Origin: Candidatus Spyradenecus sp.
GTDB lineage: Bacteria > Verrucomicrobiota > Verrucomicrobiia > Opitutales > UBA953
DNA: 64,000 bases
Assembly: GCA_045535075.1 (NCBI GenBank)
Contig: JAZSKX010000018.1
Coordinates: 308,146-372,145 of the forward strand
Reading direction: 5' to 3'
Shown here: piece after piece, positions 31,661-52,146 of the stretch
Layout of the letters: each line of letters begins with the position of its first letter
Numbering within the stretch: position 1 is the first letter of the stretch
Translations under genes and position numbers: made by a program
Notes under the pieces: model-generated
What the model was told of the DNA's origin: nothing
The model's database searches: none
What the model saw: the letters and a program-made list of their open reading frames with translations, nothing else

Positions 31661-33085
31661 ATGGAACAAATCGCAGACGTTCTCGCTCAACGCTACGCCA
31701 CGGAACCGATTCGCAAAATCTGGTCGGCAACCGGACGCATCATCCTCGAACGCGAATTTTGGATCGCCGTCATGCGCGCTCAGCGCGACCTCGGGCTCGA
31801 CATTCCCGCTGAAGCCATTGAGGCTTACGAACGCGTCAAGGAAAACGTCAATCTCGATTCCATCAACGCGCGGGAACGCATCACGCGCCACGACGTCAAA
31901 GCCCGTATCGAAGAATTTTGCGATCTCGCCGGCTTTGAGCACATTCACAAGGGAATGACTTCCCGCGACCTCACGGAATCCGTCGAACAGCTTCAGGTTT
32001 TCCGCTCGCTCGAATACATTCGCCTCAAAACCGTCGCCGCCGTCAAACGCCTCGCCGAGCGTGCCGCAGAAACGCGCGACATTGCGATGACTTCCCGCAC
32101 GCACAACGTTGCGGCACAGCTCACGACTTTCGGCAAGCGTTTCGCGATGTTCGGCGAAGACATGCTCGTCGCTCTGCGGGAGCTCGACGCGCTTATCGCC
32201 AACTACCCGGCGCGCGGCGTAAAAGGTGCCGTCGGCACGCAACTCGATCTGCTCACGCTGTTTGACCACGATGTCGAAAAGGCGATGGAATTTGATTCCC
32301 GCGTCCGCAAGCACCTCGGCATTCCGCACGCATTCAATGCAACGGGGCAGGTTTACCCGCGCTCGCTCGATTTTGCGACGATTTCCACGCTCGTCCACAT
32401 TGGCTCCGGCGCGTCCAGCTTCGCGAAAACGTTGCGCCTGATGGCGGGGCACGAGCTCGCCAGCGAAGGCTTCCTGCCGGGACAAGTCGGCTCGTCGGCG
32501 ATGCCGCACAAAATGAATTCCCGCAGCTGCGAACGTTTGAACGGTCTGCACGTCATTTTGAAAGGCTATCTCGCTATGGCGGCGGATCTCGCCGGCGACC
32601 AATGGAACGAAGGCGACGTTTCCTGTTCCGTCGTGCGCCGCGTGGCGCTCCCGGATTCCTTCTTCGCGATTGATGCGTTGCTCGAAACCTTCCTCGTCAT
32701 TTTGAACCAGATGGAAATTAACGTTCCCGTCATTGAGCGCGAAAAGAATTATTACCTGCCGTTCCTGCTGACGACGACCATCATGATGGAAGCCGTCAAA
32801 CGCGGCGTGGGGCGCGAAACCGCGCACGAAGTTATCAAGGAACACGCCGTCGCCACCGCGCGCGATATTCGCCAAGGCAAAATTTCGAACAATAACCTGT
32901 TCGACCGCCTCGCCGAAGACGGTCGCCTGAAACTTTCCCGCGACGATTTCGACGCGATCGCCAAAATCGCCGCCGCCGAAACGGGAACGGCAGGCATGCA
33001 GGTCGACAACTTTGTCGCCACCGCCAACGAACTTTTAGCAAAATTTCCCGCCGCCGCAGAAATCAAGCCCGGCGCAATTCTGTAA
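31661..33085 (+). CDS. purB: Adenylosuccinate lyase
   Basis: RHDVKA, HKGMTSRD, SRTH and the signature GSSAMPHKMN. Confidence 0.95.
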   Translation: MEQIADVLAQRYATEPIRKIWSATGRIILEREFWIAVMRAQRDLGLDIPAEAIEAYERVKENVNLDSINARERITRHDVKARIEEFCDLAGFEHIHKGMTSRDLTESVEQLQVFRSLEYIRLKTVAAVKRLAERAAETRDIAMTSRTHNVAAQLTTFGKRFAMFGEDMLVALRELDALIANYPARGVKGAVGTQLDLLTLFDHDVEKAMEFDSRVRKHLGIPHAFNATGQVYPRSLDFATISTLVHIGSGASSFAKTLRLMAGHELASEGFLPGQVGSSAMPHKMNSRSCERLNGLHVILKGYLAMAADLAGDQWNEGDVSCSVVRRVALPDSFFAIDALLETFLVILNQMEINVPVIEREKNYYLPFLLTTTIMMEAVKRGVGRETAHEVIKEHAVATARDIRQGKISNNNLFDRLAEDGRLKLSRDDFDAIAKIAAAETGTAGMQVDNFVATANELLAKFPAAAEIKPGAIL

Positions 33086-33115
33086 AAAATTAAGGCTTAT
33101 TAAAGAAGCCTAAAA

Positions 33116-33149
33116 AAGCGTTCCCGTGAAATAAATCACGGGAACGCTT
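33116..33149. terminator. Bidirectional terminator formed by an inverted CGTTCCCG pair
   Basis: AAGCGTTCCCGTGA-6nt-TCACGGGAACGCTT between convergent genes. Confidence 0.85.
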
Positions 33150-33180
33150 CTTCTGTCTTTAACCGCGAATCTTTTTCCGC

Positions 33181-35220
33181 TTATTTCGCAGGACGTCCGT
33201 CAAAGAAGAAAACTTCAAAAGGCTTCAACGTGAAGGAGAGCTCCTTGTCGAGCGGAATCGTCGCGCCGGAAATCCCCTGGAGTTTTCGCTGTCCGCCCTT
33301 AAAGGAATCTTTCAGCGTAATAGAGCCCTGGACATGCGCGGGAACGTCGAGCAATTGACGCAACGTCGCCGTAAGCGTTTTTTCGTCTTTAGAAGAATTG
33401 CGCAAGGCGAGAGTCGCCTTTTTTCCGTTCCAGGAAGCCCAACCGTAGATGTCTCCGCATTTTTTTTCGTTGTCCCACGGATTGCCGCCGACCCAGTGAG
33501 CGTCGTCGAGCACATCGGCGTTCCCGCGGAACCACTTGATGCACTCGGCAAGTTCTTTCCAGAGATCGAGTTTCGTCATGATGTCGTTATCGACATAAAG
33601 CTCCTGCAAGGCGCTCCCGCTGGCGAACGCACAACGCATTTCCTTGAGAATGTCGTCGCGTCCGTCGGCGTTGTTTGCCATGCAATTCGGCGGTCCGTGG
33701 CGGGTTATCATGAGTCCGTGCGTCATGATTGAATTAATCGGGCACAGCGGCGAGCCTTGAACAAAGACTTCGTAAACAAGGCGATCTCGATAGGTAATCC
33801 ATTTATTTCGATTATTCCCGTCTCCGATGCCGCCATGGTCGTTTTCCTGTCGCCAAATGGAGTCTGCAATGTGAAACCAAAACGGCGAAGCCCATGTGCC
33901 GACGGTCGTATTGAGGAAAATATCCGGGCGTTTTTTACGAAGAGCTTTCTCAACTTTGATAATGCCTTCTGCGTCTTCCTCTCCTCCCGGACCTTTCGCG
34001 TGGAATTTCGTGCTGATCCCGTCGAACTTGAAATAGCGCATGTCGTAATCGGCAACCATTTGCGAACAACGCCCGACGAACGCGTCGAAGTATTCCTTGT
34101 TCGAAAGCTCAAAATTGCCGATTTGGTTGTTCGGGTGATTTTTATTCCAATAGCCGAGACGCTGAGTCTTGGACGCGCCGTAGCCGCCGACGGGCCCAAG
34201 CCAAGCACCCATTCCCGCGCCTTGCTTCAGCGCTGCGGTATTGAGTTTTTCAAAACCGTTCGGGAACCCGCTGTGGAAGCCCCAGAGCGAATTAAAATCG
34301 TCCCAGCCGTCGTCCCAAACGAACGCGTCAACACCGATTTTATGTTTTTTGAAAAGGTTTTTGTTCCACTCTTCAATGACATCGAGGCATTGTTTTTCCG
34401 ACATGCGGTTCTTCGGATCCGGGTCGTTGTTGCGGTTGATGTTGAGCTCATACCACGAATTGTAGTGGACAAACGAGCGCCACGGCACAGCGCGTTCCCG
34501 CTCATTGTAAGCGAGGAAGGAGCGGCGCTCCTGCCCGGGAACGAGAGCTCCGATAACGGAGGAAACATCCCAGATTTCGCCCTTTTTCAGCGTGGTTTTA
34601 CGCGACCATTTTCCCGTCATCGTGTCGCCGGAAACTTCGTTAAGCGCCATCGGCGTTTCGAGCGCGGCAAAAACCTTTTCCGTTACGACGGGCGAGCCGC
34701 GCGTGTTCCCGAGGACTTTTGCTCCCGGAAGCTTGATTTCAAGCGGAACAATTGCCTGCATCGGAGTATCGGCCTTCGCCTTAATTTTCAGCTCTTGGCG
34801 GATGTAATGCGAGCCGTCGCGCAAAACCGCGCGCCATCTTACGGAAAGATTGCCTTTGCTGAACGTGCCGACGATTGCCTGCCCGGCAAAACGTTCGGAA
34901 AGTTTGACGGCTTTCGGATTCGCTTTGAGAGCAACTTTCTTAAGCGTGCCCTTCATTTGCGATGCTTTAATGATTTCACCGTCACCGAGAACAATCTTGA
35001 AAAGCTCATCCCCTTCGGCGACCGTTTTCCCGCCGAATTTTACTTCGAAACCCTTTTTTGCATCAAAACGCGCGGCAACAAGCTCGTTAGAAAGACGTGT
35101 CCCCGATGCAAGTGCAACGCCGGGCTGCTTCTCAGACGGGAACGCAACATCCGCATTCAGCGCCGGAAGCGCCAATGCCAATAAAGTCAGTGTAAGGAAG
35201 ATTTTCTTTAGGGATTTCAT
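33181..35220 (-). CDS. Secreted glycoside-hydrolase-like protein (clan GH-D/GH36-like barrel)
   Basis: Signal peptide; YNSW, FVWDDGW and YFKFDG motifs resemble GH27/36 barrels; substrate unknown. Confidence 0.65.
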   Translation of the reverse strand: MKSLKKIFLTLTLLALALPALNADVAFPSEKQPGVALASGTRLSNELVAARFDAKKGFEVKFGGKTVAEGDELFKIVLGDGEIIKASQMKGTLKKVALKANPKAVKLSERFAGQAIVGTFSKGNLSVRWRAVLRDGSHYIRQELKIKAKADTPMQAIVPLEIKLPGAKVLGNTRGSPVVTEKVFAALETPMALNEVSGDTMTGKWSRKTTLKKGEIWDVSSVIGALVPGQERRSFLAYNERERAVPWRSFVHYNSWYELNINRNNDPDPKNRMSEKQCLDVIEEWNKNLFKKHKIGVDAFVWDDGWDDFNSLWGFHSGFPNGFEKLNTAALKQGAGMGAWLGPVGGYGASKTQRLGYWNKNHPNNQIGNFELSNKEYFDAFVGRCSQMVADYDMRYFKFDGISTKFHAKGPGGEEDAEGIIKVEKALRKKRPDIFLNTTVGTWASPFWFHIADSIWRQENDHGGIGDGNNRNKWITYRDRLVYEVFVQGSPLCPINSIMTHGLMITRHGPPNCMANNADGRDDILKEMRCAFASGSALQELYVDNDIMTKLDLWKELAECIKWFRGNADVLDDAHWVGGNPWDNEKKCGDIYGWASWNGKKATLALRNSSKDEKTLTATLRQLLDVPAHVQGSITLKDSFKGGQRKLQGISGATIPLDKELSFTLKPFEVFFFDGRPAK

Positions 35221-35282
35221 AATCAGGCATGATTATAAAAAAGAATTCGGAAAAGCGAAATTTAAAAAACGTCCATAGCCCA

Positions 35283-35323
35283 AACACTATAGTGTTGACA
35301 AGTTAATCTTTTCTTAAAATCAT
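35283..35323 (+). promoter_or_regulatory. Promoter TTGACA-17-AATCAT with overlapping palindromic operator
   Basis: Perfect palindrome AACACTATAGTGTT (35283-35296) overlapping TTGACA (35295-35300). Confidence 0.55.
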
Positions 35324-35412
35324 AAGCTCAATGTTTACTCTAATGCTGGGAATTAAAAGCCGGAGACTTTCGGATTGTCGGATGTCCATTGTTAAATCGT
35401 TAGGTTAAACTC

Positions 35413-35458
35413 GGCGTCTCCGCGGGAACGATTGTCCTGCGGAGGCGCCATCATTTTT
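35413..35458 (+). terminator. GC-rich hairpin followed by a T-run
   Basis: GGCGTCTCCGCGGGA / TCCTGCGGAGGCGCC, then ATCATTTTT. Confidence 0.6.
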
Positions 35459-35483
35459 CGTTCTCATATCCTCCTGTAACCCA

Positions 35484-35519
35484 AAGCCTTCCCGTTGTAT
35501 TGCGGGAAGGCTTCTTTTA
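35484..35519. terminator. Second hairpin made of a variant motif pair
   Basis: AAGCCTTCCCG-8nt-CGGGAAGGCTT, then CTTTTA. Confidence 0.6.
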
Positions 35520-35583
35520 TATCACACAAATTCGGTAGGATTTATTTCTTGAATGAAAATTTTACAAGCTTATCATTTGGCGA

Positions 35584-36393
35584 ATGAAAAACATAAAATT
35601 TCTCTCTTGCCTTACTTTCGCACTTTCGGGAGTAACTTCCGGCGTTTTTGCGGCTGACGCGACATTAAGCTATACGGATGCCTTCGGGATCGCCCAAAAC
35701 CAATCGGAATCCTTAGGGTATTTCATTTTGGAAGAAAACGCCCGCGACGTCGTTTTCAACACGGGAACGAACTACCTTTTCAGTAAAGACCTATATCTCA
35801 ACGCCGGACGCATTGAAAATCTTGAACTCATCGCGACGGGAAACGAAGACGACGCTCGCGTTTACAATAAGACGACGATCGACGGGAACGTCAAAATTTC
35901 GGGCGCAACCGGTTGCTTCTATTCTTACGGCGGAACGATTGAAAGCGGGGCACACTTCACCCTAAACGGAGGGCGATTTGATTTCGCCAATTCGAGCTTA
36001 CACAAATGGAAAATCGGAGAAGAAACGGGAACGCGCGCATTAATTTCAGGAACGGGAACCGTCACCATTCGTAATACGACATTGAATGGCGAAGCCTTTA
36101 CTTCGTGGCTACAGCTGGATTTCGCGAACTATGATGTTTTAAAAAAGACGAAAACGCTGAGTCTTGTCGACGCCGGAACTATCGTCGGTTCCGGATTAAA
36201 TTTTCGCGATATCTCCGTCTTTGTCGACGGCTGGCAAGTTTTTGACTACACGGCAAGTCTGGACTGGAATTCCGACAGCGTAAATTTCGGCAAAATCTCA
36301 ATCACGCATCCGATTCCGGAGCCGTCTGCTTTCGGCATGCTTGCCGGATTATGCGCCTTAGCGTTTGCGGGAACGCGCCGCCGTCACCAATAA
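35584..36393 (+). CDS. PEP-CTERM (exosortase target) surface protein
   Basis: Signal peptide; C-terminal IPEPSAFGMLAGLCALAFAGTRRR (PEP motif, TM helix, basic tail). Confidence 0.92.
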   Translation: MKNIKFLSCLTFALSGVTSGVFAADATLSYTDAFGIAQNQSESLGYFILEENARDVVFNTGTNYLFSKDLYLNAGRIENLELIATGNEDDARVYNKTTIDGNVKISGATGCFYSYGGTIESGAHFTLNGGRFDFANSSLHKWKIGEETGTRALISGTGTVTIRNTTLNGEAFTSWLQLDFANYDVLKKTKTLSLVDAGTIVGSGLNFRDISVFVDGWQVFDYTASLDWNSDSVNFGKISITHPIPEPSAFGMLAGLCALAFAGTRRRHQ

Positions 36394-36396
36394 AAA

Positions 36397-36439
36397 AAGC
36401 GTTCCCGCTTAAGCCGGCTTTCGCCGCACGGGAACGCTT
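36397..36439. terminator. Bidirectional terminator formed by an inverted CGTTCCCG pair
   Basis: AAGCGTTCCCG...CGGGAACGCTT between the convergent PEP-CTERM gene and argG. Confidence 0.75.
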
Positions 36440-36472
36440 CTCTTTTAGCCTTAATCGTTAAGCTCTCAAAAC

Positions 36473-37705
36473 TTACATCATGTTTTCCGGACCGTTGACC
36501 TTGGCGTTCACCTTGAGGCGAAGCGCGTTCAGGTGGATGAAGCCGGAAGCGTCGTCCTGGTCGTAAGCATTGGTCGGGTCGGCTTCCATCGTCGCGATGT
36601 CCGGATTGTAGAGCGAGCACGGCGACTTGCGACCGGCAACGTAGCAGCAACCCTTGTAGAGCTTGACGCGCACCGTTCCCGTGACGTTTTTCTGCGTTTC
36701 CGTAACAAGTGCCTGCAACGCGAGGCGTTCCGGCGCATACCAAAATCCGTTATAAACGAGTTCCGCATATTTCGGAATGAGGCTGTCGCGCAAGTGCATC
36801 GTATCGCGATCCATCGTGATGGATTCCATCTGGCGATGCGCGAAGAAAAGAATCGCTCCGCCCGGGGTTTCATAAACGCCGCGCGACTTCATGCCGACAA
36901 AACGGTTTTCAACCATGTCAACGCGCCCGATGCCGTGCTTTCCGCCGAGCTTGTTGAGCGTTTGCATCACTTCAAGCGGCGTCATCTTCTTGCCGTCGAT
37001 GGCGACGCAGTTACCTTTTTCAAAATCGAGTTCGATAAATTCCGGTGCGTCGGGAGCGTCTTCCGGAGCGACGGAGAGTTTGAACATCGCCTTGTTTTCC
37101 GGGCAGAACGCGTCGAACCACGGATCTTCCATGATCCCGGCTTCGTAGGAAATGTGGAGCAAGTTGCGGTCCATCGAATACGGCTTTTTCATGCTCGCTT
37201 CGACGGGAAGCCCCTGCGCCACGCAGTAATCGATCATTTCCTTGCGCCCCGGGAACTGCGCGCGGAACGTTTCGTCGCGCCACGGAGCGATGATTTTCAA
37301 ATCCGGAGCGAGCGCGGCAGCGGCGAGCTCAAAGCGCACCTGGTCGTTGCCCTTGCCCGTCGCACCGTGAGCGATAGCGTCGCAACCTTCCGCCTTGGCG
37401 ATTTCGACCATGCGTTTCGCGATAAGCGGACGCGCAATCGACGTGCCGAGGAAGTATTGTCCTTCGTAAATCGCTCCCGCCTGCATCATCGGGAAAATGA
37501 AGTCGCGGGCAAATTCTTCCTGCAAATCTTCAATGTAAATTTTGGAAGCGCCGGTTTTCTTGCTCTTTTCTTCGAGCCCGGAAAGCTCTTCTTCCTGTCC
37601 GACGTTCGCGCAGTAAGCGACCATTTCGGCGTTGTATTTTTCTTTAATCCAGGAAAGGAGCACGGACGTGTCCAATCCGCCGGAATATGCGAGAAGAATC
37701 TTCAT
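36473..37705 (-). CDS. argG: Argininosuccinate synthase
   Basis: [36 protein letters not shown]. Confidence 0.99.
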
Positions 37706-37898
37706 AGCAATGATTGTTTTGTGTGATTAAAAAGTAAGCGGGAATCATGCGCCGCGTTCCCGCGAAAATCAACGCGGAATTTAGCAATAAAGCGTAGAAA
37801 CCGTAAACTGCCGTAAATATTTTTAGCCGCGGGCAGCACGATTTTCTCGGATGTTTTTCAAAAAGCTCCGCGAAAAATAATCCGCTCCGCCCGTGAAA

Positions 37899-38735
37899 CT
37901 ATTTTCCGGCGGAAACGAACCCCTTCAGCCAAGCTTCCGCGAGTTGCGGCCAAACAAGCCCGACGCCGGATCGCATGCCGTAGCCGTGCCCGCCTTTCGA
38001 CAAATAATGCAAATCCACGGGACGGCGATTCGCACGCATCGCCTCCGCCATCACCAACGCGCTTCGGCTACTATAATAATAATCGTCGAGCGTCCCGAAA
38101 ATGAACATCGGCGGCGTGTTCGCCGAAACCTTGAGCTCCGGCGTCAGGCTGTGCCCGGGACCGCCGTCGAGATACGCCGGATAAATCAACATCGCAAAAT
38201 CGGGACGGCAACTGAGCTTGTCGGCAGCGTCCCGCGGCGGATAAAGCGTTTCCTCAAATCGCGTTGCCGCACGTGCAGAAAGGCTCGCTCCCGCAGAAAA
38301 ACCGATGACTCCGACTTTCTCCGGCGCGTATTTTTCCCGCACGACACGAATCGCACGCTGAAGATCCTGCAACGCGCCGTTCGGATTCGCGGGAACGCGA
38401 TATGCCAGCGTAAACGCCGTAAAACCCCGGCGCGCCAGCCACTGCGCGACCTCGGTTCCTTCCTTGTCGTAAGAAAGCACCTGATACGCGCCGCCGGGGC
38501 AAACAATGACGGCAACGCCGTTCGGCTCCTTTTCGGGAAGAGCAACTTCCAAGGTCGGGTTCGAAACCCGCGTCAGGCGAATTACGCCCTTTTCCGTTTT
38601 TGTGTCGGTAACGTGCTTTTCCCCAGGCGTATTTTCTGCGGGAACGCTCGGCTTCCAAATTTCGATGATTTCCGCATGAACAGCGGCAGAAAGGCAAAAC
38701 GCGAGACAAGTAACGGCAACAAGAATTTTTCTCAT
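37899..38735 (-). CDS. Secreted alpha/beta hydrolase (carbohydrate esterase-like)
   Basis: Signal peptide from ATG 38735; CPGGAY oxyanion loop, GFSAG nucleophile and GGHGYG. Confidence 0.88.
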   Translation of the reverse strand: MRKILVAVTCLAFCLSAAVHAEIIEIWKPSVPAENTPGEKHVTDTKTEKGVIRLTRVSNPTLEVALPEKEPNGVAVIVCPGGAYQVLSYDKEGTEVAQWLARRGFTAFTLAYRVPANPNGALQDLQRAIRVVREKYAPEKVGVIGFSAGASLSARAATRFEETLYPPRDAADKLSCRPDFAMLIYPAYLDGGPGHSLTPELKVSANTPPMFIFGTLDDYYYSSRSALVMAEAMRANRRPVDLHYLSKGGHGYGMRSGVGLVWPQLAEAWLKGFVSAGK

Positions 38736-38873
38736 GAGAAGAAAGCCTAGCGTTTTTTTCGCGACAGGCAAAAAAATGTTCCCGCAAGAAAATCCCGCGG
38801 GAACGATTTTTCTGTTTCCAAAGAAACTTTCTTCGGAGAAGCCGACCAAACTTATCAGCTTCTAAGCCACAAA

Positions 38874-40580
38874 CTACTTATCCAAACCCCAGCGTTCCCG
38901 TAGCCAGCGTTCAACGGGCGCGAAGCAAAGCCGGTCCATGACCAAGCCGACAAGGATAATAACGAGCATGACCCCGTAAACTTTTTCGACATTCATTTCT
39001 TCGCGTCCGGCGTTGAGCATCCAGCCCAAACCGATGCCGCTGAAAATATAAACATAAATTTCGGCAGACATCAGCGAGCGCCACGCAAACGCCCAGCCTT
39101 GCTTCATACCGGAGAAAATTAACGGGAGCGCCGCCGGGAACATCACGTGCGTCCACAGGTGAAAATGCTTCGAGCCCATTGTCCGCGCGGCACGCACATA
39201 AAGCGGCGGGACGGAACGAATCCCGCTTTCCGTCGCCAACATGAGCGACCAAACCGAACCCATAACGACAACCGTCAGGATTGCCCATTCGTCCTGCCCG
39301 AAAATCACAAGCGAAATCGGCACCCAACAAACGCTCGGCAGAGCTTGAAACCCGAGCGCCAAAACGCCGAGCGTGCTACGCATCAGCGCACTTTGCGCCA
39401 GCAAAAGCCCGAGCGGAAGCGCAATCGCAAATCCGATGGCGTAGCCCAAAAGCAGGCGACGCATCGTTACGACAAGAGCGCTCAAAATCGAACCGTCCCA
39501 AACGCCGTCCCAAAGAAAACCTGCGATTTCCGACGGTAACGGGAACACGCCGGCGCGCATTTTCGGCGGAAGCTCCGTCGTTTGAACCAAATCTTCGACT
39601 TCGATTTTTTCCGGAATCATTCCCGTTCCGAAGCCGTCGTTGACATATTCGGCGAGCGATTTTTTGTTTACTTCGCCGACAAACTTGATGCGCGGGAACG
39701 CGTTGTTGACGATACGCATCGGGAATTCCGCGTGCGTTTCCCGCGTAAGCGCGCGCTGGAGCAAAACCTTTGCTTCGTCCGGATGGGCGTTAATCCAAGC
39801 CGTCAATTCGCCGTGCGCTTTAGCAAAGGCATTCAACAGTTTTCGCCGCTTCGTCAGCGTTTCCGTCGAAGCCGCCAAAACGGTCGTTACCGAGGCGTAA
39901 TCTTCGAGAAAAATTTTTCCGCCGGTTTCCAATTCGAGACGCGAAACCCACGGCTCGACGGTCCAAGCAGCTTCAAGCGTTCCCGTGCGGAAAAGCGCAA
40001 GTTGATCCGGATTTTTGGTCGGCGCAATTTGCACTTTCGCGTCGTTCTGCCCGGCAGGAATTCCGCTTTTAATTAACCACGCGCGGCAGGCAACGTCCTG
40101 CGTATTGCCGAGTTGGGGCGTTGCGATTTTTTTGCCGATAAAATCCTCCGGGCGCGTTCCCGTGAAATCGCCGCGCACGACAAGTGCCGCGCCGCCTTCG
40201 GCGCTCCCGCAAACGATGCGTACGGCGCCCTGCCGGCGAATGTACGCATTGATTGCCGGCGACGGGCCGACGTACGACATATCAATCGAGCCGATGGTCA
40301 AGCCTTCCATCGCCGACGGGCCGGCGTTGTAGGGTTGCCAAAAAAGTTTCGTTCCCGCAGGAAGCCGCGCCTCAAACCACGGCTTGCCTTCGAGCGCCAA
40401 TTGCTGGGCAATAAGCGCCTGAGCGTGCGTGATATTCGGGAAATAGCCGACGCGCAATTCGTTTTCCGAGGCTGTTTTTTTCTTTAACGAAAAATCCGAA
40501 AGCCAATCGCTGCGCCCGACAAATTCGAGCCCGGCAATGAGCGCCACCGCAAAGAGAATGTAGAAAATAACACGTTTCAT
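38874..40580 (-). CDS. Fused ABC substrate-binding protein and permease (SsuA/TauA/NitT-type)
   Basis: GYFPNITHAQA and ATPQLGNTQD binding domain, followed in-frame by TM helices with an EAA-like motif (VRAARTMGS) and AWRSLMSAE. Confidence 0.88.
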   Translation of the reverse strand: MKRVIFYILFAVALIAGLEFVGRSDWLSDFSLKKKTASENELRVGYFPNITHAQALIAQQLALEGKPWFEARLPAGTKLFWQPYNAGPSAMEGLTIGSIDMSYVGPSPAINAYIRRQGAVRIVCGSAEGGAALVVRGDFTGTRPEDFIGKKIATPQLGNTQDVACRAWLIKSGIPAGQNDAKVQIAPTKNPDQLALFRTGTLEAAWTVEPWVSRLELETGGKIFLEDYASVTTVLAASTETLTKRRKLLNAFAKAHGELTAWINAHPDEAKVLLQRALTRETHAEFPMRIVNNAFPRIKFVGEVNKKSLAEYVNDGFGTGMIPEKIEVEDLVQTTELPPKMRAGVFPLPSEIAGFLWDGVWDGSILSALVVTMRRLLLGYAIGFAIALPLGLLLAQSALMRSTLGVLALGFQALPSVCWVPISLVIFGQDEWAILTVVVMGSVWSLMLATESGIRSVPPLYVRAARTMGSKHFHLWTHVMFPAALPLIFSGMKQGWAFAWRSLMSAEIYVYIFSGIGLGWMLNAGREEMNVEKVYGVMLVIILVGLVMDRLCFAPVERWLRERWGLDK

Positions 40581-40610
40581 GAGAGAAAAACTCCTTTCTT
40601 TTCGGGGCGT

Positions 40611-41450
40611 TTAGGCATCGGCAATGTTCCCGCCGGACTTGCCGAGGTAGCGTTTGAGCGCCGCCGTAATCGGGATTGAGGTTTTCGACAGTTCCGGGTC
40701 ATTAATGTCGCGGGGACGCGGCAAGTCGACGCGAAAATCCTGCCCGACGCGTCCGGGATTCGGCGAAAGCAAGACGATGCGGTCTCCCAGACATGCGGCT
40801 TCGCGGATATTGTGCGTTACGAAAATAATCGTTTTCTGGCGCTGAACGAAAATGCGTTGCAAGTCGCCGTAAAGCTGTTCCCGCGTGAGTGCGTCCAATG
40901 CGGAAAACGGCTCGTCCATAAGCAAAATCCTCGGATTCGGGGCAAGGGAACGCGCCAGCGCCACGCGTTGTTTCATTCCGCCGGAGAGCTGATGAATGTT
41001 GGATTTATAAAATTTCTCCAAGCCGACAAGACTTAAATAATACATCGCGACTTCGGCCCGCTCGGCGTTATTCAGATTCGGTTTCAGTCGCAAGCCGAAC
41101 ATAACGTTTTGCAGGACATCCAGCCACGGGAACAGAGCGGATTCCTGAAACATGACCATGCGATCGCGCCCGGGCCCGTGAATCGGCTCGCCGTCCATCA
41201 ACACTTCGCCTTCCGTCGGCGTATCCAACCCCGCAACGAGATTCAGAATTGTCGACTTTCCGCAACCGCTCGGCCCGACGAGGCAAACGAATTCGCCTTC
41301 GCCGATGTCAAGCGATACATTGTCGAGCGCAAGCACGGAGCCGTGACGGGAACGAAAAGTTTTACTGACGTTGCGCAAGCTGATTTTTGCCGCCGTCACG
41401 CATTCGCCGGCGATGCTCACCGGCTGGGGAGAAATGGGTTGAGAATTCAT
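40611..41450 (-). CDS. ABC transporter ATP-binding protein (SsuB/TauB/NitT-type)
   Basis: GPSGCGKST, LSGGMKQR, LLMDEPFSALD. Confidence 0.95.
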   Translation of the reverse strand: MNSQPISPQPVSIAGECVTAAKISLRNVSKTFRSRHGSVLALDNVSLDIGEGEFVCLVGPSGCGKSTILNLVAGLDTPTEGEVLMDGEPIHGPGRDRMVMFQESALFPWLDVLQNVMFGLRLKPNLNNAERAEVAMYYLSLVGLEKFYKSNIHQLSGGMKQRVALARSLAPNPRILLMDEPFSALDALTREQLYGDLQRIFVQRQKTIIFVTHNIREAACLGDRIVLLSPNPGRVGQDFRVDLPRPRDINDPELSKTSIPITAALKRYLGKSGGNIADA

Positions 41451-41651
41451 TTTCGGGGGAAGCTGAACGATTAAAACGCCGTAAAAAAATGCCGCGCTTC
41501 CCGTCAAAACGCAACGCCGAAAGACAAATTAAACACATCGCCCGCCAAACTTCCGACGACCCTGAAATTAAAGATGCGGCGGAAGAAAAAAACACCGGCA
41601 AGCGAAACTTAGTTTTGCGTTCCCGCGAGCGGCGCTGTTTGATTTCCGTCT

Positions 41652-43442
41652 GTGAAAAAAATAATTTCTTCCGCGATTCTAATGGCATCTATCGTTTTCC
41701 CCAGCCCGGACTCTTACGGGCAGAATGTTCCCGCGCAACCCTCGCCTGCCGCCTCCAACCCGCAACCGACAGCCGGCGGCGACTTCATCAACCTGCTCTT
41801 GCTTGCGGACCTTGCGCTGTATTCATACCCGGACGACATTCGAGACTGCGCCGGGCGGCTTGTCGAACGCGCAGAAGCCATTCCCGATCCCGCGTTGCGG
41901 CGCCTCATTGTTTTCTCGCTCTCAAAAATCATTAACGCCCCCGAGAAAGCGGAGGAAGCGCGGCGGGAACACATGACAAAAATCGGGCAGCATTTTTTTG
42001 AAGTCGCCGCAACCGCGCGCAAGGGCAATCGCGACGAAGACGCGCTCGCTGCCGTACAAATCGCGCTCAAATGCGCTCCCGGCAACGCTGAAGCCCGCAT
42101 GCTTTTTGCTTCGCTCATTGAGCCGAAAGCCGCGCTCCAAACACTTCATTACGGCATTCGATTTCTTGATTTAACTACGGATGTCGCGCCGGCTTATTTC
42201 AATCGCTACTTCGGCGCGCTTGCCGATTTGCAACAGGACCGCATCGCCGCCAAACAGGCCCTGGCGCTACTCGACGGCAAAAAATCCAACGGCAAACCGG
42301 CGCTCCCGCCCGCCGTCCGAACCGTCGTCGCCAATCATGCGGCAATGGCGCTCTTTTGGCTCGGCGAATACGACGCGGCACTGAAAATAATTGAAAGCGA
42401 AAAAATCTCCGAAACGCAGCAGGGACTGATTCTGAAATCACGCTGCCTTTTCGACCTGCGGCGTTCCCGTGAGGCAATCGCGTTGCTCAGCGGCAAGGTT
42501 AATGATTTCCCCGCGTCGAAACGCGACGTTATTTTGTCCCAACTGGCGCATTTCCACCAATACCTGGGAGACTTGGACGCCGCTTTGGAAACCGCGAACC
42601 GCCGCATCGAAGAGAATCCGACCGCATCGCAACCGTACCTTCATCGCCTTTACCTGCTCAATAAGCTCGGGAAAAAAGACGCCTTCAACGAAGAACTTGC
42701 CGCCGTTTTTAAAACTTTTTCGGCACAACAATCCGCGTTGATTTCGTTGGCAAATTTCTCCGCAGAAAACGGGAATCCCGCAATCGCGGAAACCTGCACG
42801 GCAATTGCCGTCGAAAAAAAGTTTCCGCCGAACATTTTTGTCGCCGCAACAATCGAAGCTTTCGTTACCGCAAAAATGCCGGAACAGGCAATCGACACTT
42901 ATCAGAAAATTTCCAAGGCCTCGCCGAAAATGCTCGAAGGCATGGAATCCGCAACAACGGCAATTCTTGCCGCCGCCTACACGCTCGCTGCCGAAAAAGC
43001 AGGCGACGATGCGGAAAATCGGACGCGTTTTGAAAGCCACGCCGATTTGTTGCTCGGACAATTCCTCGACGACACAACTCTCTCCCCGGAAAACTATATT
43101 TCCGTGAGTGCGCTTTTTGAACGCATCGGGCAAAACGAAACGGCGTTGAAAGTCGCTCGCTTCGGGCTCGCCGCGTTCCCGTGGCACGCACAGCTCCGCG
43201 CCAACACGATTATCCTGCGAATTCGTTGCGGGCAAATTGCGGGAACACGCGAGCAGACGCCGCTCTCAAAAGAAATTCGCGTCCTCGCCGGAATGCGTCG
43301 CCCGAACCCGAAAGTTTGGAGCATTGTCGCGCAATGGCTTGAAGCGACAAACCCGCTCTCGCAAAGCGAAATCGACACACTCAGGAAAATCGTCGCTCCG
43401 CTCGTCCGCGATGATTTGAGCTTGGAAATGGTCCGCGAATAG
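41652..43442 (+). CDS. Exported TPR-like helical-repeat protein
   Basis: Signal-like N-terminus and Ala/Leu-rich helical repeats such as LGEYDAALKII and LGDLDAALETANRRIEENP. Confidence 0.7.
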   Translation: MKKIISSAILMASIVFPSPDSYGQNVPAQPSPAASNPQPTAGGDFINLLLLADLALYSYPDDIRDCAGRLVERAEAIPDPALRRLIVFSLSKIINAPEKAEEARREHMTKIGQHFFEVAATARKGNRDEDALAAVQIALKCAPGNAEARMLFASLIEPKAALQTLHYGIRFLDLTTDVAPAYFNRYFGALADLQQDRIAAKQALALLDGKKSNGKPALPPAVRTVVANHAAMALFWLGEYDAALKIIESEKISETQQGLILKSRCLFDLRRSREAIALLSGKVNDFPASKRDVILSQLAHFHQYLGDLDAALETANRRIEENPTASQPYLHRLYLLNKLGKKDAFNEELAAVFKTFSAQQSALISLANFSAENGNPAIAETCTAIAVEKKFPPNIFVAATIEAFVTAKMPEQAIDTYQKISKASPKMLEGMESATTAILAAAYTLAAEKAGDDAENRTRFESHADLLLGQFLDDTTLSPENYISVSALFERIGQNETALKVARFGLAAFPWHAQLRANTIILRIRCGQIAGTREQTPLSKEIRVLAGMRRPNPKVWSIVAQWLEATNPLSQSEIDTLRKIVAPLVRDDLSLEMVRE

Positions 43443-43495
43443 GAAACAAAGCCGTTCGCTCCCGCTGCTTGCGACTAACTTAATCCCTCCCGCTC

Positions 43496-44272
43496 GTGGA
43501 CAATTCCGTCAACCTCACATTCTTTTCGCATCCGGAAATCGTACTTGATTATGCGCGGGCAGCGATAAATGTCGGGCTGTGGAATTCCGAAAAACAACTC
43601 TACAAAACATTCATTGCCCGGGACGCCGAAATCCTCGAACTCGGCGCCGGCGCCGGGCGCGTCTCCCTCGGGCTTGTACGCGAAGGATATTCAAAAATCA
43701 CCGTTACGGATTTCGCACCGCCGATGGTTGAAATCGCACAAACGATTTTTGAAGACGCCGCAATTCCGGCAAATGCAAGCATTCGTTTCGCCGTCGAGGA
43801 CGCCACGCAGATTTCGTTCCCGCAAAACAGCTTCGACGCCGTCATCTTCGCATTCAACGGCCTGCAAATGATTCCGAAGCAGGCACGGCGGGAACTGGCA
43901 ATTCGGGAAATCTCACGCATTCTGCGCCCCGGCGGAGTTTTTATTTTTACCGGACACGACCAAACACACGCCGCGCGGCGGGAACACTGGGACTCGGAGC
44001 GTTCCCGTTGGGAAAATAACGAACGCGATCCCGCACTCGATGATTTCGGCGACTACAACCATGCCACGCCGCAAGGCGCAATGTTTATCCACGCCGCCGT
44101 TCCCGCGCAAATGCGGCAAATCCTCGAAGCAAACGGCTTTGAGGTCGAATTTTCCGAGTTGCGCTCCCGTTTCGCAACCGAGCCGCCCGCCGTCCTCGAT
44201 TTTTCCGACGACACGCGATTTTGGGTCGCACGAAAATGTTCCCGCAATTCGCACGGGAACGAAGAAATTTGA
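43496..44272 (+). CDS. Class I SAM-dependent methyltransferase
   Basis: ILELGAGAG, SFDAVIF, RILRPGG. Confidence 0.9.
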   Translation: MDNSVNLTFFSHPEIVLDYARAAINVGLWNSEKQLYKTFIARDAEILELGAGAGRVSLGLVREGYSKITVTDFAPPMVEIAQTIFEDAAIPANASIRFAVEDATQISFPQNSFDAVIFAFNGLQMIPKQARRELAIREISRILRPGGVFIFTGHDQTHAARREHWDSERSRWENNERDPALDDFGDYNHATPQGAMFIHAAVPAQMRQILEANGFEVEFSELRSRFATEPPAVLDFSDDTRFWVARKCSRNSHGNEEI

Positions 44273-44551
44273 ATCCTGCGACGAAAATAGGTACGCGTAC
44301 ATAGCACCGTGTCTCCGCCTCCAATACGTGTAGGTGTTTGTAAAAAAATAGAGTTTTTTACAATGACGCATTACAAAAACCGCCGGATTTTCCGTGGTTA
44401 AAAATTTTGTTGCCGACGGTTTTGTAAACCGCGGGAACGAGGGATTCGGAATTTACTAATCGCGATTTTGGATTCACACTCTTCAGAAAATGAATTTTGT
44501 CGGGCAATGCTTTATAGACAAGTTCGCTTGATTCTCCCGCTTTAAACAATC

Positions 44552-45358
44552 ATGGAAAAAACATTTTTTCTTGAACGCAGTTGCGCAATCCTGAACGAGA
44601 TTCGGGAACGCTCGCCGCTGGTGCTCTGCTTAACGAATTCGGTCGTCCGGCCGATTACGGCAAATCTTCTGCTCGCAGCGGGCGCGGCGCCCGTCATGCT
44701 CAGCGACGAATCCGAAGTACGGGAACTTGTCGCTTGCGGTGCCGCAAATGCGCTTTTGATTAACCTCGGGACGCTTTCGGAAGCACAGGCGCAGACGATG
44801 CGCGCCGCCGTCGAAAGCGCGGGAACGCGTGTTCCGTGGGTGCTTGATCCCGTTGCTGTCGGAGCATTGAGTCTGCGAACACGCTTTGCCGGGGAAATGC
44901 TGGCGAAAAAACCGACGATGATTCGCGGGAACGCCTCCGAGATTTTGGCGCTTGCCGGCTTTGAGGCTTCAGCCCGCGGTCCCGAAAGTACCTGCGGCAG
45001 CGAAGCGGCAATCGAAGCCGCGCAAAAACTCGCCGCCGAAAGCGGAGCCGTCGTGCTTGTAACGGGAGCGGTAGACTATGCGACGGACGGGCGGCGAATT
45101 ATCGCGCTCGGGAACGGGAACGTGTTAGCGACGCGCGTTACCGGCGCCGGGTGCTCGATGGGCGCGCTTGCCGCCGCCTGCCTCGCCGTCGCGGAAACGC
45201 CGCTTGAAGCGGCGGTTGCCAACGCGCTGATAATGGGTGTTATCGGCGACATTGCAGCGGAATCATCGCGCGGTCCCGGCACGTTTTCTTCTGCGCTTCT
45301 CGACGCTCTCTACAATCTTTCCGAGGCAGACATGCGTTCCCGCGCCCGCATTTTGTGA
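44552..45358 (+). CDS. thiM: Hydroxyethylthiazole kinase
   Basis: PLVLCLTNSV, INLGTL, VLDPVAVG, IRGNASEI, VTGAGC. Confidence 0.95.
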   Translation: MEKTFFLERSCAILNEIRERSPLVLCLTNSVVRPITANLLLAAGAAPVMLSDESEVRELVACGAANALLINLGTLSEAQAQTMRAAVESAGTRVPWVLDPVAVGALSLRTRFAGEMLAKKPTMIRGNASEILALAGFEASARGPESTCGSEAAIEAAQKLAAESGAVVLVTGAVDYATDGRRIIALGNGNVLATRVTGAGCSMGALAAACLAVAETPLEAAVANALIMGVIGDIAAESSRGPGTFSSALLDALYNLSEADMRSRARIL

Positions 45359-45457
45359 GCATTAACAGAGGTCGCTCCCGGCAATTAAAGCCCGAAAACC
45401 GACAATTCACGCTTAGCGAACAAACCCTCCTCCACTTTTCCACTCTTCCACTTTTCC

Positions 45458-46081
45458 ATGAACCCTCATTTCGACCTGAATCTTTATCTTGTTACCGACA
45501 TTCCCGCGCGTTGCACTCTGCCGCTCGCGGAAACGGTCGAAGCCGCGATTGCCGGCGGCGTAAGCATTGTTCAGTATCGCAGTGAACATGCCTACGGCGG
45601 CGCGGCTTATCGCGAAGCGCTTCCGATTGCGGCTGTCTGTCGGAAAAACGGAATTCCGTTTATCGTCAACGATCGCATCGACCTTGCCTTAGCGCTGGAT
45701 GCAGACGGCGTTCACATCGGGCAACGCGATTTCCCGCCGGAAGTCGCACGACGCATTTTGGGGCCGGGGAAAATTATCGGTTTTTCCTGTTCGAGCCTCA
45801 GCGAAGTGCGCGCGGTTGACGAAAAGCTTGTAGATTACCTCGGTTTAGGCCCGGTGTTCCCGACGCAGACGAAAACCGATGCCGCTCCCGCGATGGGGCT
45901 GGAAGAACTGGCGCTTTGCGCTTCGGCGACGCCGCTTCCGGTCGTCGCCATCGGCGGAATCAACGCCGGGAATGCGCATAGTGTTCGTGCTGCGGGAACG
46001 CAGATGGGCCTTGCCGTTGTTTCCGCAATCTGCGCGGCTCCCGACCCGCGTCTTGCTGCCGAAGCTCTGCGGGAACGCTGA
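45458..46081 (+). CDS. thiE: Thiamine-phosphate synthase
   Basis: LYLVTD, IVNDRIDLA, GVHIGQ.D, GPVFPTQTK, VAIGGIN. Confidence 0.97.
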   Translation: MNPHFDLNLYLVTDIPARCTLPLAETVEAAIAGGVSIVQYRSEHAYGGAAYREALPIAAVCRKNGIPFIVNDRIDLALALDADGVHIGQRDFPPEVARRILGPGKIIGFSCSSLSEVRAVDEKLVDYLGLGPVFPTQTKTDAAPAMGLEELALCASATPLPVVAIGGINAGNAHSVRAAGTQMGLAVVSAICAAPDPRLAAEALRER

Positions 46082-46177
46082 ATTCTTCGTTGCTTCAAGG
46101 GAAGCGAAAGTCAATAATCTACGCGTTATTTTTAACATATTTTCCCTATCGAAGTTCAAAATTCTATTTTTATAAAA

Positions 46178-47248
46178 ATGGCTACCAAATTATTTATTCC
46201 CGGTCCGACGGAAGTCGCACCCGAAGTGCTCGCCGCGATGTCGCTCCCGATGATGGGGCACCGTTCGAAAGTCGCTTCCGAACTGCAACGCCGCATTTCC
46301 GACAATCTGCGCCGCATCCTGCTCACGAAAAACGAAATCCTGCTCTCGACTTCCTCGGGAACGGGCTTTATGGAAGGCGCCGTGCGCTCCTGCACCGCCA
46401 AGCGCGCCGCGATGTTCTCCGTCGGAGCCTTCGGAAAAAAATGGTATAAAATCGCCAAAATGAACGGCATTCCCTCGGACTTTTTTGAAAGCGAGCCGGG
46501 CGAACCGACCACGCCGGAAATGGTTGACGCCGCCCTTTCCACGGGAAAATACGACACGGTTTGCATCACGCACAACGAAACTTCCACCGGGATTCAAAAC
46601 CCGTTTGAAGAAATCGCCGAAGTGATGAAAAAATACCCGGACGTCGTTTGGTGCGCAGACGCGGTTTCCTCCGCCGCCGGAGCAAAAATCGAAACTGACA
46701 AGCTCGGCGTGGACGTGCTCGTTACCTCGACACAAAAAGCACTCGCGCTCCCGCCCGGCATGGCGATTTGTGCGCTTTCGCAAAAAGCCTACGAACGCAC
46801 GGCGAAAGTTGAAAACCGCGGCTGCTACTTCGATTTGCGCGACATTTACGACGTCATTCAGAAGAAAGATTACCAATACACGAACACGCCCTGCGTTTCA
46901 ATTATGTATGCGATGGATTTACAGCTTCAACGCATCATGCAGGAAGGCGTTGAAAACCGCTTCAAGCGCCACGAGGAAATGGCGGCGTTCGTTCGTGCGT
47001 GGGCGGACGAATATTTCGGCATTTTCTCCAACCGAAAATACTTGTCAAAAACGCTGACCGTCATCAAAAACACGCGCGGCATCAGCGTTGCCGACCTGAA
47101 CAAAGAACTCATCAAACGCGGGATGCAGCTCGGGAACGGCTACGGAGACTTTAAGGAAAAGACGTTCCGCATCGCGCACATGGGCGAGCTTCAGATGTCC
47201 GACATGCGCGCCATTACGGAAAACATCGTCGATATTCTCGGCTTGTAA
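46178..47248 (+). CDS. Class V PLP aminotransferase (alanine-glyoxylate/serine-pyruvate family)
   Basis: FIPGPT, HNETSTG, DAVSS, STQKALALPPG, FRIAHMG. Confidence 0.92.
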   Translation: MATKLFIPGPTEVAPEVLAAMSLPMMGHRSKVASELQRRISDNLRRILLTKNEILLSTSSGTGFMEGAVRSCTAKRAAMFSVGAFGKKWYKIAKMNGIPSDFFESEPGEPTTPEMVDAALSTGKYDTVCITHNETSTGIQNPFEEIAEVMKKYPDVVWCADAVSSAAGAKIETDKLGVDVLVTSTQKALALPPGMAICALSQKAYERTAKVENRGCYFDLRDIYDVIQKKDYQYTNTPCVSIMYAMDLQLQRIMQEGVENRFKRHEEMAAFVRAWADEYFGIFSNRKYLSKTLTVIKNTRGISVADLNKELIKRGMQLGNGYGDFKEKTFRIAHMGELQMSDMRAITENIVDILGL

Positions 47249-47285
47249 ATTCCGGAGCTTCTTCAAGCCCTCAAGTTTTCCGACA

Positions 47286-47323
47286 AAAAAGCGTTCCCGC
47301 GAAAAATTGCGGGAACGCTTTTT
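47286..47323. terminator. Bidirectional terminator formed by an inverted GCGTTCCCGC pair
   Basis: AAAAAGCGTTCCCGC-GAAAAATT-GCGGGAACGCTTTTT between convergent genes. Confidence 0.88.
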
Positions 47324-47340: not shown

Positions 47341-49215
47341 TTACTCGTCGGAATCTTTGGCGGGCGTTTCATCGCGCTGAAGAGTCAACTTCGAAGGCGC
47401 CTGCATTTCCCGCGGCTGGGCGAAGATTTGGTAAGTCAGAAGTTTTTCCATCGGAACGGAGGCTCCGACAGCCATTCCGTTAAATTCCGCTTCATCCGGA
47501 ACCAAAAGACAAATATTTTTCGGGGTTTTCGCCCGCGGATCAGCCTCCCCGACACGTTCAACCTCAATGTAATTAAGCGTCGGCGACTTGCGCGTGATTT
47601 TCACGGGTTTGCGTTGAATTTTACCCATTGCGTAATAAGTCTTTCCGCCGACGGTAATTTTCTTCGCAACGCTGTATTTCTCGTCGAGCAAACGATCTTC
47701 GGGTTTAACACGTTCGCGCTCGACTTTTCCCGCCGAAAACGCTTTGACATCGCGCCCGCCGTCAGCCGGCTTCAATTTCAAATCGTCGGGAATAAACAAC
47801 GTGACGTTCTTTACCTGAACGCGCAGACACATCCCGCGGTCGTTGTCGCGAGCAATACGGAACGAGCCGTCTTCTTCCAACGGATAAGCATTCATCGCGG
47901 GAACTTCAAATTCTCCCAGCAGTGTCGCGTTGTTTTTATCCGTGAAATTTTTCCAAAGTTCATCACGATAAGCTTGCGAATAGTTAATCCGATTCTTATC
48001 CACGAACTCCTGAAACTTATCAAGGAACGGCGGCATTTCATGAACACACCAACGGACGACCGCAAGCTTTGACGGGCTATCCTTGGGCATGTTTTCGATT
48101 TCTTTTTTCAGCTTGGAGGAATTCAGTTTTGAAATTAGCTCCTTTGACGGATTTCGGGTAAGCAGGCGCTCTTTTTCCTCCGGACGATAGAAACGCCCTT
48201 GGCTGTCTTGGCGATAAATTTCCTGTTCGAGCAAACGCGCCCAACGTGCCGGTTGCTCGGCGATGTCCTCGGCTTTGAGTTTAGAAAGCCAATCGTTCAA
48301 ACGGCCGGAAAGCATTTTCACTCCGTCCGGGCTCGGGAGCGCGGGAGCAAGCTCTTCGACCGCTTTTGCCGCCAATTCCTCATCCGTCCAAAGCGGATTT
48401 TTCAATTGTTCGAGCAGTTCGACTTCTTCCTGAAGAATTTTCTTCACATCATTTGAGACCCGCGGAACAAAGAAAATGTCGATGCTGTCCGGCTTCATTC
48501 CCTCGGGGAGAATTGCGGACAGAAGCGGCGTTGCATCCACTTTGCCGGAAATAAACGTGCTTTGTTCCTTCGGAATGTAAACCTGCTTGAGGAAATCCCG
48601 GCGCGGATCTTTTCCGCCGTTGGGCATTTTAAATTCGAGCGCGTTAATTTCTTCGCGGAATTTTTCAAGGTCTTCGATGTCTTTCGCCGTCGAACGGATT
48701 GTTTTCGGATATTCTTCGTTCGGCGCAACCATCATTTCCGTAATCGGAGCGAGCAGCCCGCGATTGATTCCGCTGAGTTTTACACTATCGAGCGTAAAGA
48801 AGATTCCACCGAAAACGAGAAAGAATGCGCCGACGCCAATCCCGATTTTCATGTATTTTTTGTGAGCCAAAGCCCGTTCGTAGTCGGCAATCGCCGTCGC
48901 CGCTTCTTTCGGGGAAAACTTGTCTACGGAGATTGCGTCTGCCAAATCATAGAGCATCAGCTTTTTCCGCACCTCCGGATCCAGTTTTTCCTGACGCGCT
49001 TCGCGAAGCCGCTGTTCTTCGGCTTCCGTCTTGCGGGAAAGCCGCACGCCCATCCGGATGTTAAAAACATCTTTTGCCGGCTTCCATTCCGTATCTCCCG
49101 GAGCCGCAATCAGCACATCTGCGGGAAGCTCTCCGCTCTTGATTTTTGCTTCAATTTCCTGTTGCGGAAGCGGTCCGGCAACAGCGTCGTCGATGAAAAG
49201 CGAATACTCTTTCAT
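47341..49215 (-). CDS. Hypothetical membrane-anchored protein with N-terminal GYF_2-like domain
   Basis: YSLFIDDAVAGP...GELPADVLI..PGDTEWKP pattern; one TM segment near residues 123-140; large C-terminal region. Confidence 0.7.
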   Translation of the reverse strand: MKEYSLFIDDAVAGPLPQQEIEAKIKSGELPADVLIAAPGDTEWKPAKDVFNIRMGVRLSRKTEAEEQRLREARQEKLDPEVRKKLMLYDLADAISVDKFSPKEAATAIADYERALAHKKYMKIGIGVGAFFLVFGGIFFTLDSVKLSGINRGLLAPITEMMVAPNEEYPKTIRSTAKDIEDLEKFREEINALEFKMPNGGKDPRRDFLKQVYIPKEQSTFISGKVDATPLLSAILPEGMKPDSIDIFFVPRVSNDVKKILQEEVELLEQLKNPLWTDEELAAKAVEELAPALPSPDGVKMLSGRLNDWLSKLKAEDIAEQPARWARLLEQEIYRQDSQGRFYRPEEKERLLTRNPSKELISKLNSSKLKKEIENMPKDSPSKLAVVRWCVHEMPPFLDKFQEFVDKNRINYSQAYRDELWKNFTDKNNATLLGEFEVPAMNAYPLEEDGSFRIARDNDRGMCLRVQVKNVTLFIPDDLKLKPADGGRDVKAFSAGKVERERVKPEDRLLDEKYSVAKKITVGGKTYYAMGKIQRKPVKITRKSPTLNYIEVERVGEADPRAKTPKNICLLVPDEAEFNGMAVGASVPMEKLLTYQIFAQPREMQAPSKLTLQRDETPAKDSDE

Positions 49216-52111: not shown

Positions 52112-52146
52112 AACAACGGGAGGCGCGGGATAATTACCGGGGAATT

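Follow-up and report, generated by a model that had tools for sequence, protein, structure and literature searches.

Predicted intrinsic terminators spelled with a genus-restricted dispersed word in a gut Opitutales genome, with biased DNA uptake as a possible driver of the word

The 64,000-nucleotide stretch of contig JAZSKX010000018.1 from Candidatus Spyradenecus sp. (positions 308,146 to 372,145, hereafter the window) carries hairpins after genes whose arms are copies of a dispersed word, (Y)RCGGGAACG, and these hairpins are very probably intrinsic (Rho-independent) terminators, often bidirectional, judging from sequence evidence. The terminator reading follows from their position, their U-tracts, their enrichment at convergent junctions and near-absence from divergent ones, and compensated changes both within the genome and in a sister genome. 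A force at the DNA level very probably acts on the letters of the word. Its best-fitting driver, with about an even chance, is an uptake bias resembling that of the DNA uptake sequences (DUS) of Neisseriaceae and the uptake signal sequences (USS) of Pasteurellaceae; the joint reading, in which intrinsic terminators are spelled with a genus word that is kept by sequence-biased uptake of own DNA, is likewise evenly balanced.

The source organism is a member of the gut Opitutales, its RpoA being 85-86% identical to that of three metagenome-assembled genomes, two of them from sheep and goat gut, and its PilT grouping with records that carry the name Candidatus Spyradosoma. Its 1.95-Mb genome (G000) holds 5,159 copies of CGGGAACG, a density of 2.65/kb, with 77 copies of the reversed control. 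The word is restricted to one genus: 14 of the 18 other genus genomes are rich in it (5,161-7,777 copies each), 62 genomes from four other genera of the same family hold 31-383 copies, and the maximum among 145 Opitutales genomes outside the genus is 0.16/kb. In the gene set from our own simple gene caller, 5,524 of 6,528 sites of the 7-mer (85%) are intragenic, with all six reading frames represented, and coding copies number 4,272 compared with 401 under synonymous shuffling. The encoded tripeptides AGT, VPA and RER exceed expectation 4.9-, 5.0- and 3.7-fold, those of the reversed control (TGA 0.9, APV 1.0, LER 1.1) lying near it; such enrichment is described as an uptake-sequence signature (PMC2817400). 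Single-mismatch variants are depleted at positions 2 and 5 and enriched at positions 4, 6, 7 and 8, giving a strict core with tolerant flanks, an arrangement also reported for USS (PMC3458573). Two Mu-like prophage regions (G000 C16:184000-221000 and C8:22500-35200, with transposase-, Gam- and head-like genes recognised by sight) carry the 7-mer at 0.76 and 0.79/kb versus 3.3/kb, and the C8 prophage is not present at the syntenic place in the relative G013. The hairpin pattern was found in 35 viral contigs, each with 0.1-0.83 copies/kb and none host-like.

Genome-wide, the pattern GTTCCCG-N0-30-CGGGAAC occurs in 168 of 1,096 intergenic regions versus a mean of 25 (maximum 42) in 500 randomisations over the same sites. 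Sorted by gene orientation, these are 60 of the 160 convergent regions, 103 of the 737 codirectional ones and 5 of the 199 divergent ones. Noncoding pairs number 179 at spacings of 0-30 nt, compared with 24 at 31-60 nt and with 22 that face the other way; a general preference for CCCG before CGGG, seen in the stems of motif-free relatives (70 versus 38), probably explains the orientation. The genome-wide share of stems containing the motif, suggested as a check in a preliminary description of the window, was obtained from a motif-blind scan of 1,018 gene ends, which counts each convergent hairpin twice, from both sides: both arms are the word in 184 of 379 stem-plus-U-tract sites, comprising 80 of 193 codirectional and 104 of 186 convergent ends, with a median distance of 24 nt from stop codon to predicted terminator. 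The pattern is present in 19 of 19 genus genomes, with counts of 57-138 (8 in G014), and occurs 0-3 times in 14 outgroup genomes, all counted on the forward strand because reverse counts overcount T runs.

Within the window, the preliminary description had placed motif-armed hairpins at three convergent junctions, similar pairs at three further sites, and a pair with one compensatory change in both arms at 35484-35513. All seven pairs were found at their coordinates, and RNA folding makes six of them far more stable than shuffled sequences (z-scores of -3.6 to -8.4). The word, these pairs and one hairpin lacking the motif are as follows.

1 to 64000, both strands: dispersed word (Y)RCGGGAACG, with 143 exact copies of CGGGAACG, mostly intragenic.
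1981 to 2007, minus strand: predicted terminator after rplQ, at the end of the ribosomal protein/rpoA operon (z -4.6).
24122 to 24149, minus strand: non-motif hairpin with a U-tract after an AmpG-like gene, a predicted terminator of the word-free half.
33116 to 33149, both strands: predicted bidirectional terminator with motif arms and a 6-nt loop (z -8.1/-8.4), between the convergent purB (31661-33085, plus) and ORF679 (33181-35220, minus).
35484 to 35513, plus strand: predicted terminator between divergent genes, both arms carrying a compensated change (z -6.4).
36397 to 36439, both strands: predicted bidirectional terminator with motif arms and a branched loop (z -3.6/-5.1), between a PEP-CTERM-like open reading frame (ORF; 35584-36393, plus) and argG (36473-37705, minus).
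38778 to 38804, minus strand: predicted terminator after an ABC transporter gene at 38874-40580 (z -5.8).
44238 to 44260: weak motif pair within the last codons of a methyltransferase ORF at 43496-44272 (z -1.6).
47286 to 47323, both strands: predicted bidirectional terminator with motif arms (z -5.8/-5.5), between an aminotransferase-V gene (46178-47248, plus) and the gene of a GYF_2 protein (47341-49215, minus).

Five of the seven pairs form a strong hairpin with a U-tract close after a stop codon. At the three convergent hairpins, which stand as first described, an A-tract precedes and a T-tract follows the stem, thereby providing a stem plus U-tract on each strand. The further pairs fared unevenly: those at 1981-2007 and 38778-38804 hold up, whereas the one at 44238-44260, located inside an ORF and with no U-tract on the plus strand, is probably not a terminator. 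At 1981-2007 the sequence of one arm deviates from the word, giving a U-G pair in the transcribed strand, and four relatives have a hairpin with a U-tract downstream of rplQ. The compensatory change at 35484-35513 is present in both arms as claimed, but the site lies in a divergent gap and would end a candidate RNA rather than a gene. The remark that the convergent junctions near 24120 and 52130 do without such pairs was also borne out, neither having an exact pair and the former having the non-motif hairpin at 24122-24149; a degenerate pair, CTCCCG...CGGGAG, lies at 52090-52122 over the end of rdgB, without a U-tract. Two metatranscriptome runs from a single study and two other runs contain the region as assembled contigs, with pieces spanning parts of purB, ORF679 and argG; contigs of this kind do not show 3' ends.

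The separation between pairing and letters is best seen in relatives that are losing the word. G001, G002 and G013 retain about 1,350 copies each, with some 75% of the word gone, and G014 retains 552. In RecC, ComEC and pilin trees (quick trees with Shimodaira-Hasegawa-like approximate likelihood ratio supports, the G005 and G023 rows being left out of the ComEC tree), G001, G002 and G013 are sister to this genome with support of 100, 90 and 93 and are nested in motif-rich clades; the position of G014 is less certain. Orthologous sites, which are mutually non-independent, are intact in 43 of 72 cases in G018 and 44 of 90 in G004, against an all-7-mer background of 0.21 and 0.20, and lie at background in G001 (30/118), G013 (20/102), G002 (11/63) and G014 (8/86), indicating that the letter-keeping force has stopped in these four. 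The comparison with G013, covering 1.47 of its 2.11 Mb, shows the 8-mer at 0.66/kb, fourfold lower than here, and motif-like hairpins with U-tracts at 56/Mb versus 93/Mb here and 6/Mb in outgroup loci. Exact arms occur in 35 of 83 hairpins in G013 versus 120 of 182 here (p 4e-4), and the deviations in G013 comprise 43 two-sided, 30 G-U and 13 broken cases, so that stems drift off the word largely through compensated and G-U changes. At 93 orthologous gene ends, both arms are exact in 27, no motif-like hairpin lies within 130 nt in 16, and the remaining 50 are changed, a class that allows three mismatches and includes unrelated hairpins, for which reason the stricter counts above are relied on; orthologous hairpins carry unrelated loops. 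Termination thus likely keeps the pairing and not the letters, the latter being kept by another force at the DNA level. No replacement word or dialect was found in the stretches of G001, G002, G013 and G014 that were read.

Two further observations concern these relatives. The first 2.2 kb of recC hold no motif copies in G001, G002 and G013, and 4-16 in motif-rich genomes. Tandem heptamers of the form G(A/C)TTA(A/G)(A/G) stand right after stop codons in G013, G001, G018 and G004 and more weakly here (for example 33090-33111 and 36440-36472); their doublets number 294 in the part of G013 read versus 43 in this genome, being expanded where the main word decays.

An uptake bias would connect these results in the following manner. 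The type IV pilus/ComEC pathway would preferentially import own DNA carrying the word, thereby maintaining it; a word gained in one arm of a stem would be gained in both through complementarity, and terminators would act as a permissive sink for a drive favouring the word. With the drive off, as proposed for G001, G002 and G013, the letters would drift and the pairing would stay. An intact ComEC was seen in 33 of 33 genomes, every genome checked has DprA and PilB/PilT, and PilC, a secretin and seven pilins are intact in this genome, with ComM- and ComF-like genes recognised by sight only. A 141-aa pilin was found in 18 of 18 genus genomes but not in 13 of 14 others. On a broader view, to which we give somewhat less than an even chance, the word would be a third code for recognising own DNA in natural transformation, of independent origin and located in Verrucomicrobiota. 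Its receptor would differ from ComP and do without ComEA; the code would be dense enough to have reshaped the proteome and half of the terminators, and it would have been turned off one or more times within the genus while the machinery stayed intact, which would allow the receptor to be identified by comparing sister genomes.

Several observations weigh against maintenance by uptake. The four decayed genomes retain ComEC, DprA, PilB/PilT and pilins, and PilB/PilT/PilC of G013 are 97% identical to those of this genome, leaving the decay of the word unexplained by machinery loss; ComEC is also present in 14 of 14 motif-free outgroup genomes. ComEA was not found with the PF12836 profile in five genus and five outgroup genomes or by a motif scan of this genome, the strong PF12836 matches falling in long ORFs (this genome's one being Tex-like by sight); a divergent or unrelated DNA receptor may act instead. 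The seven pilins are all net neutral to acidic, with no basic pilin among them, and a fold search with the genus-specific 141-aa pilin gave nothing significant (FimU came closest, at E 0.08). When aligned across genomes, the 141-aa and 237-aa pilins, considered as readers and rejected, contain no change exclusive to the decayed genomes. The density of DUS or USS is about 1/kb, and that of this word lies above it. Counted with the strict 7-mer, sites in pairs make up an equal share in G013 and here (7.5% versus 7.9%), which also implies that terminators do not preserve letters. The hairpin filter applied to G013 demanded 6 of 7 pairs and so capped the broken class and leaned to paired stems. 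A further caveat is that the genes come from our own simple caller. The preliminary equation of the motif with a DUS/USS fits best but stands as a proposal: the hallmarks are present in the sequence, but neither ComEA nor a ComP-like receptor was found, and genomes in the course of losing the word keep their uptake genes.

The search for a reader of the word extended to further candidates. An Atlas search for a pilin reader returned unnamed clusters only, plus a T2SSG lead below 0.9. Among the 83 genes missing from syntenic stretches of G013, which include a prophage, polysaccharide genes, lipoproteins and islands, no obvious DNA reader was seen by eye from the N-termini, with 480 further genes unjudgeable. 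Pilin number was rejected, as 7 versus 10-11 does not track the word, G004, G012 and G018 being rich with 10-11. Prepilins number 10-11 rather than 7 in G001, G002, G013, G014, G004, G012 and G018, accompanied by a third PilB/GspE-type ATPase in the five of these genomes checked and a second secretin in two; these extra genes probably belong to a type II secretion system that most motif-rich genomes have lost. A 1,420-aa protein at G000 C8:91549-95811, with a PilX-like N-terminus by sight, is a candidate tip protein and is 64% identical in G013, below the conservation of other pilus genes.

With the same terminator layer, the word could instead be the site of a cytoplasmic DNA-binding protein, such as a nucleoid organiser or a recombination or repair factor, and be kept through direct selection or biased intracellular recombination. 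Such a binder equally predicts copies on both strands and in all frames, retention, prophage depletion and decay in a sub-lineage, it is favoured by the failure to find ComEA or a basic pilin, and a dimeric form could fit the 12-nt peak among the spacers of stop-proximal pairs (68 of 237). Coding pairs have no spacer peak, however, same-strand spacings up to 150 nt show by eye no periodicity except 3 nt, and no candidate emerged by eye among the 83 genes missing from the part of G013 that was compared, about 70% of that genome, making this explanation rather unlikely. A doubtful alternative, slightly less probable than the binder, treats the word as a very abundant, unpolarised Chi of the genus RecBCD, with word-rich incoming double-stranded DNA escaping degradation, recombining and spreading the word. 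RecC is present in 19 of 19 genus genomes versus 2 of 14 other family genomes (one above the cut-off), RecB- and RecD-like genes are present by sight, and the word is, like Chi, a G-rich asymmetric 8-mer; the RecC position matching E. coli D136, a residue whose role we take to bear on Chi, is an invariant W in the genus. Unpolarised Chi candidates are described in Vibrio (PMC8022716, also the source of the Chi criteria). Only 55% of copies lie on the leading strand, though, with z of 1.0 once base skew is corrected, so the word is unpolarised, the same test giving 100 versus 4 on the leading strand for the positive control GAGCAGGG. Outside the genus, RecC also occurs in 30 of the 145 Opitutales genomes, where the word never exceeds 0.16/kb; the RecC of the decayed genomes is intact and carries no substitution exclusive to them. 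The word is moreover about ten times as dense as E. coli Chi. RecC position 44 (aligned with E. coli Q38) was considered and rejected, since all four decayed genomes have T there and so does the present one, which is motif-rich. GAGCAGGG(C) itself, with 126 copies in this genome and strong polarity to the leading strand, resembles the KOPS/SRS motifs of FtsK/SpoIIIE; alternatively, it may be the true Chi of this genome.

A mechanism like that of the cyanobacterial motif HIP1, in which a conserved methyltransferase marks the word and methyl-directed repair or uptake enriches it, draws on the density and coding-region spread of the word and on the depletion of variants at positions 2 and 5; HIP1 has been tied to methylases and transformation (PMC13756078). 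The word is non-palindromic, its graded tolerance at positions 4, 6, 7 and 8 is unlike an all-or-none methylase site, and no methyltransferase family tested is uniformly conserved: MmeI-like genes occur in 8 of 18 genomes, N6_Mtase is missing from 4 motif-rich genomes of 19, N6_N4 is missing from this genome, and D12 is found in 3 of 5. C5 methylase matches in 5 of 5 genomes differ in size and score, one spanning 49 residues, and the main C5 copy here sits in a low-GC, motif-poor island, all of which renders this mechanism improbable. The least probable explanation, with a very small chance, is that the pairs form a family like repetitive extragenic palindromes (REP) or miniature inverted-repeat transposable elements (MITE), copied by a transposase or gene conversion, with single copies derived from them. 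The preliminary description had denied one copied element, naming a longer conserved family with a cognate transposase as the contrary case. Two Y1 transposases do exist in the genome, but both belong to the IS200 family and are flanked by their own, different palindromes. Spacers are distinct in 180 of 237 pairs, some 92% of sites have no partner, the loops of orthologous hairpins are unrelated, and the 85% of sites lying in reading frames have aligned orthologues mostly 1-2 substitutions apart. The denial needs tempering by the 12-nt spacer peak, by 26 pairs downstream of paralogous PEP-CTERM genes, which share 3' ends, and by a modest excess of near-identical loops (3.7% of pairs versus 1.6% in shuffles): limited local copying of pairs occurred, not the spread of one element, and the copied-element reading is largely refuted. 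The Y1 transposases lie at L203:1-1072 and L204:1294-1993 amid inverted palindromes in a layout like that of REP-associated tyrosine transposases (RAYT), one of them beside 144-nt repeats.

Two other loci in the window are worth recording. The predicted terminator at 35484-35513 would end a candidate small RNA or leader of about 190 nt, assessed from its sequence elements.

35295 to 35520, plus strand: candidate non-coding transcript with a promoter-like site, a hairpin, a pyrimidine-rich, single-stranded CCUCCU stretch and the hairpin at 35484 (z -4.65).
60333 to 62009, plus strand: M60-like peptidase, of a family linked to mucin use.

The promoter-like TTGACA-17-AATCAT at 35295-35323 matches at 10 of 12 positions, and the internal hairpin at 35413-35449 has 15 bp and one motif copy. 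Rfam gave no match for the candidate and nothing in the whole window, and no second copy was found in this genome or in the relatives' stretches examined.

The co-option of word pairs as terminators is of a known kind. Inverted pairs of the DUS are found in every dialect (PMC3630211), predicted terminators account for 70-90% of inverted pairs (10.1101/2025.10.24.684340), and in Neisseria and Pasteurellaceae DUS/USS pairs form real 3' ends, with the DUS motif marking 416 of 983 3' sequences in N. gonorrhoeae (PMC13714241). The surprise lies in the word, the phylum, the density, and the sister lineages in which it is on or off. Descriptions of sequence-specific uptake words cover only two proteobacterial families (10.1101/2025.10.24.684340), and an open full-text search, which does not cover subscription papers, turned up no publication that deals with this word or reports uptake sequences from Verrucomicrobiota. 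If the reading is true, the presence of such a word, at higher density, in a further phylum would show that the strategy, along with the overwriting of terminators, evolved again. The genus offers closely related genomes in which the force still acts (15) and others in which it has ceased (3 to 4), a contrast not easily obtained in Neisseria or Haemophilus. Two questions can thereby be put to the test: whether termination is what keeps uptake words in terminators or whether they are simply tolerated there (in this genus pairing persists and the letters do not), and whether such words are maintained by molecular drive or by selection.

Among known systems, the REP sequences and their bacterial interspersed mosaic elements (BIME) with RAYT resemble the present case in their hairpins in 3' regions and in the Y1 transposases of the genome, but here the loops vary, copies are mostly single and in frame, and the transposases stand beside other palindromes. 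HIP1 shares extreme density, coding and non-coding occurrence, spread via substitution and patchy loss; the present word differs in being non-palindromic, having no conserved cognate methylase found, and forming terminator pairs. Chi with RecBCD is likewise a G-rich asymmetric 8-mer enriched in resident genes with RecBCD present, unlike which the word is unpolarised, roughly tenfold denser than in E. coli, located in terminators, and absent from other RecC-bearing Opitutales. The systems of Neisseriaceae (DUS, read by ComP) and Pasteurellaceae (USS, with ComN/PpdA as predicted reader; PMC12616744) differ in a word unrelated apart from a GCGG run, in phylum and in lower density; neither ComEA nor a ComP-like pilin was found here, where uptake is a proposal drawn from sequence, and sister species here lose the word yet keep the machinery. 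Shared with them are a short asymmetric word in thousands of copies on both strands and in all frames, tripeptide enrichment, a strict core between more tolerant positions, inverted pairs followed by a U-tract downstream of genes, prophage depletion, an intact type IV pilus, ComEC and DprA, and no replication polarity. Canonical intrinsic terminators, finally, have the same GC-rich stem, U-tract, position about 24 nt past the stop codon, A-/U-tract symmetry at convergent junctions and compensated changes, the difference being that about half of the stems here share one sequence, apparently imposed from outside.

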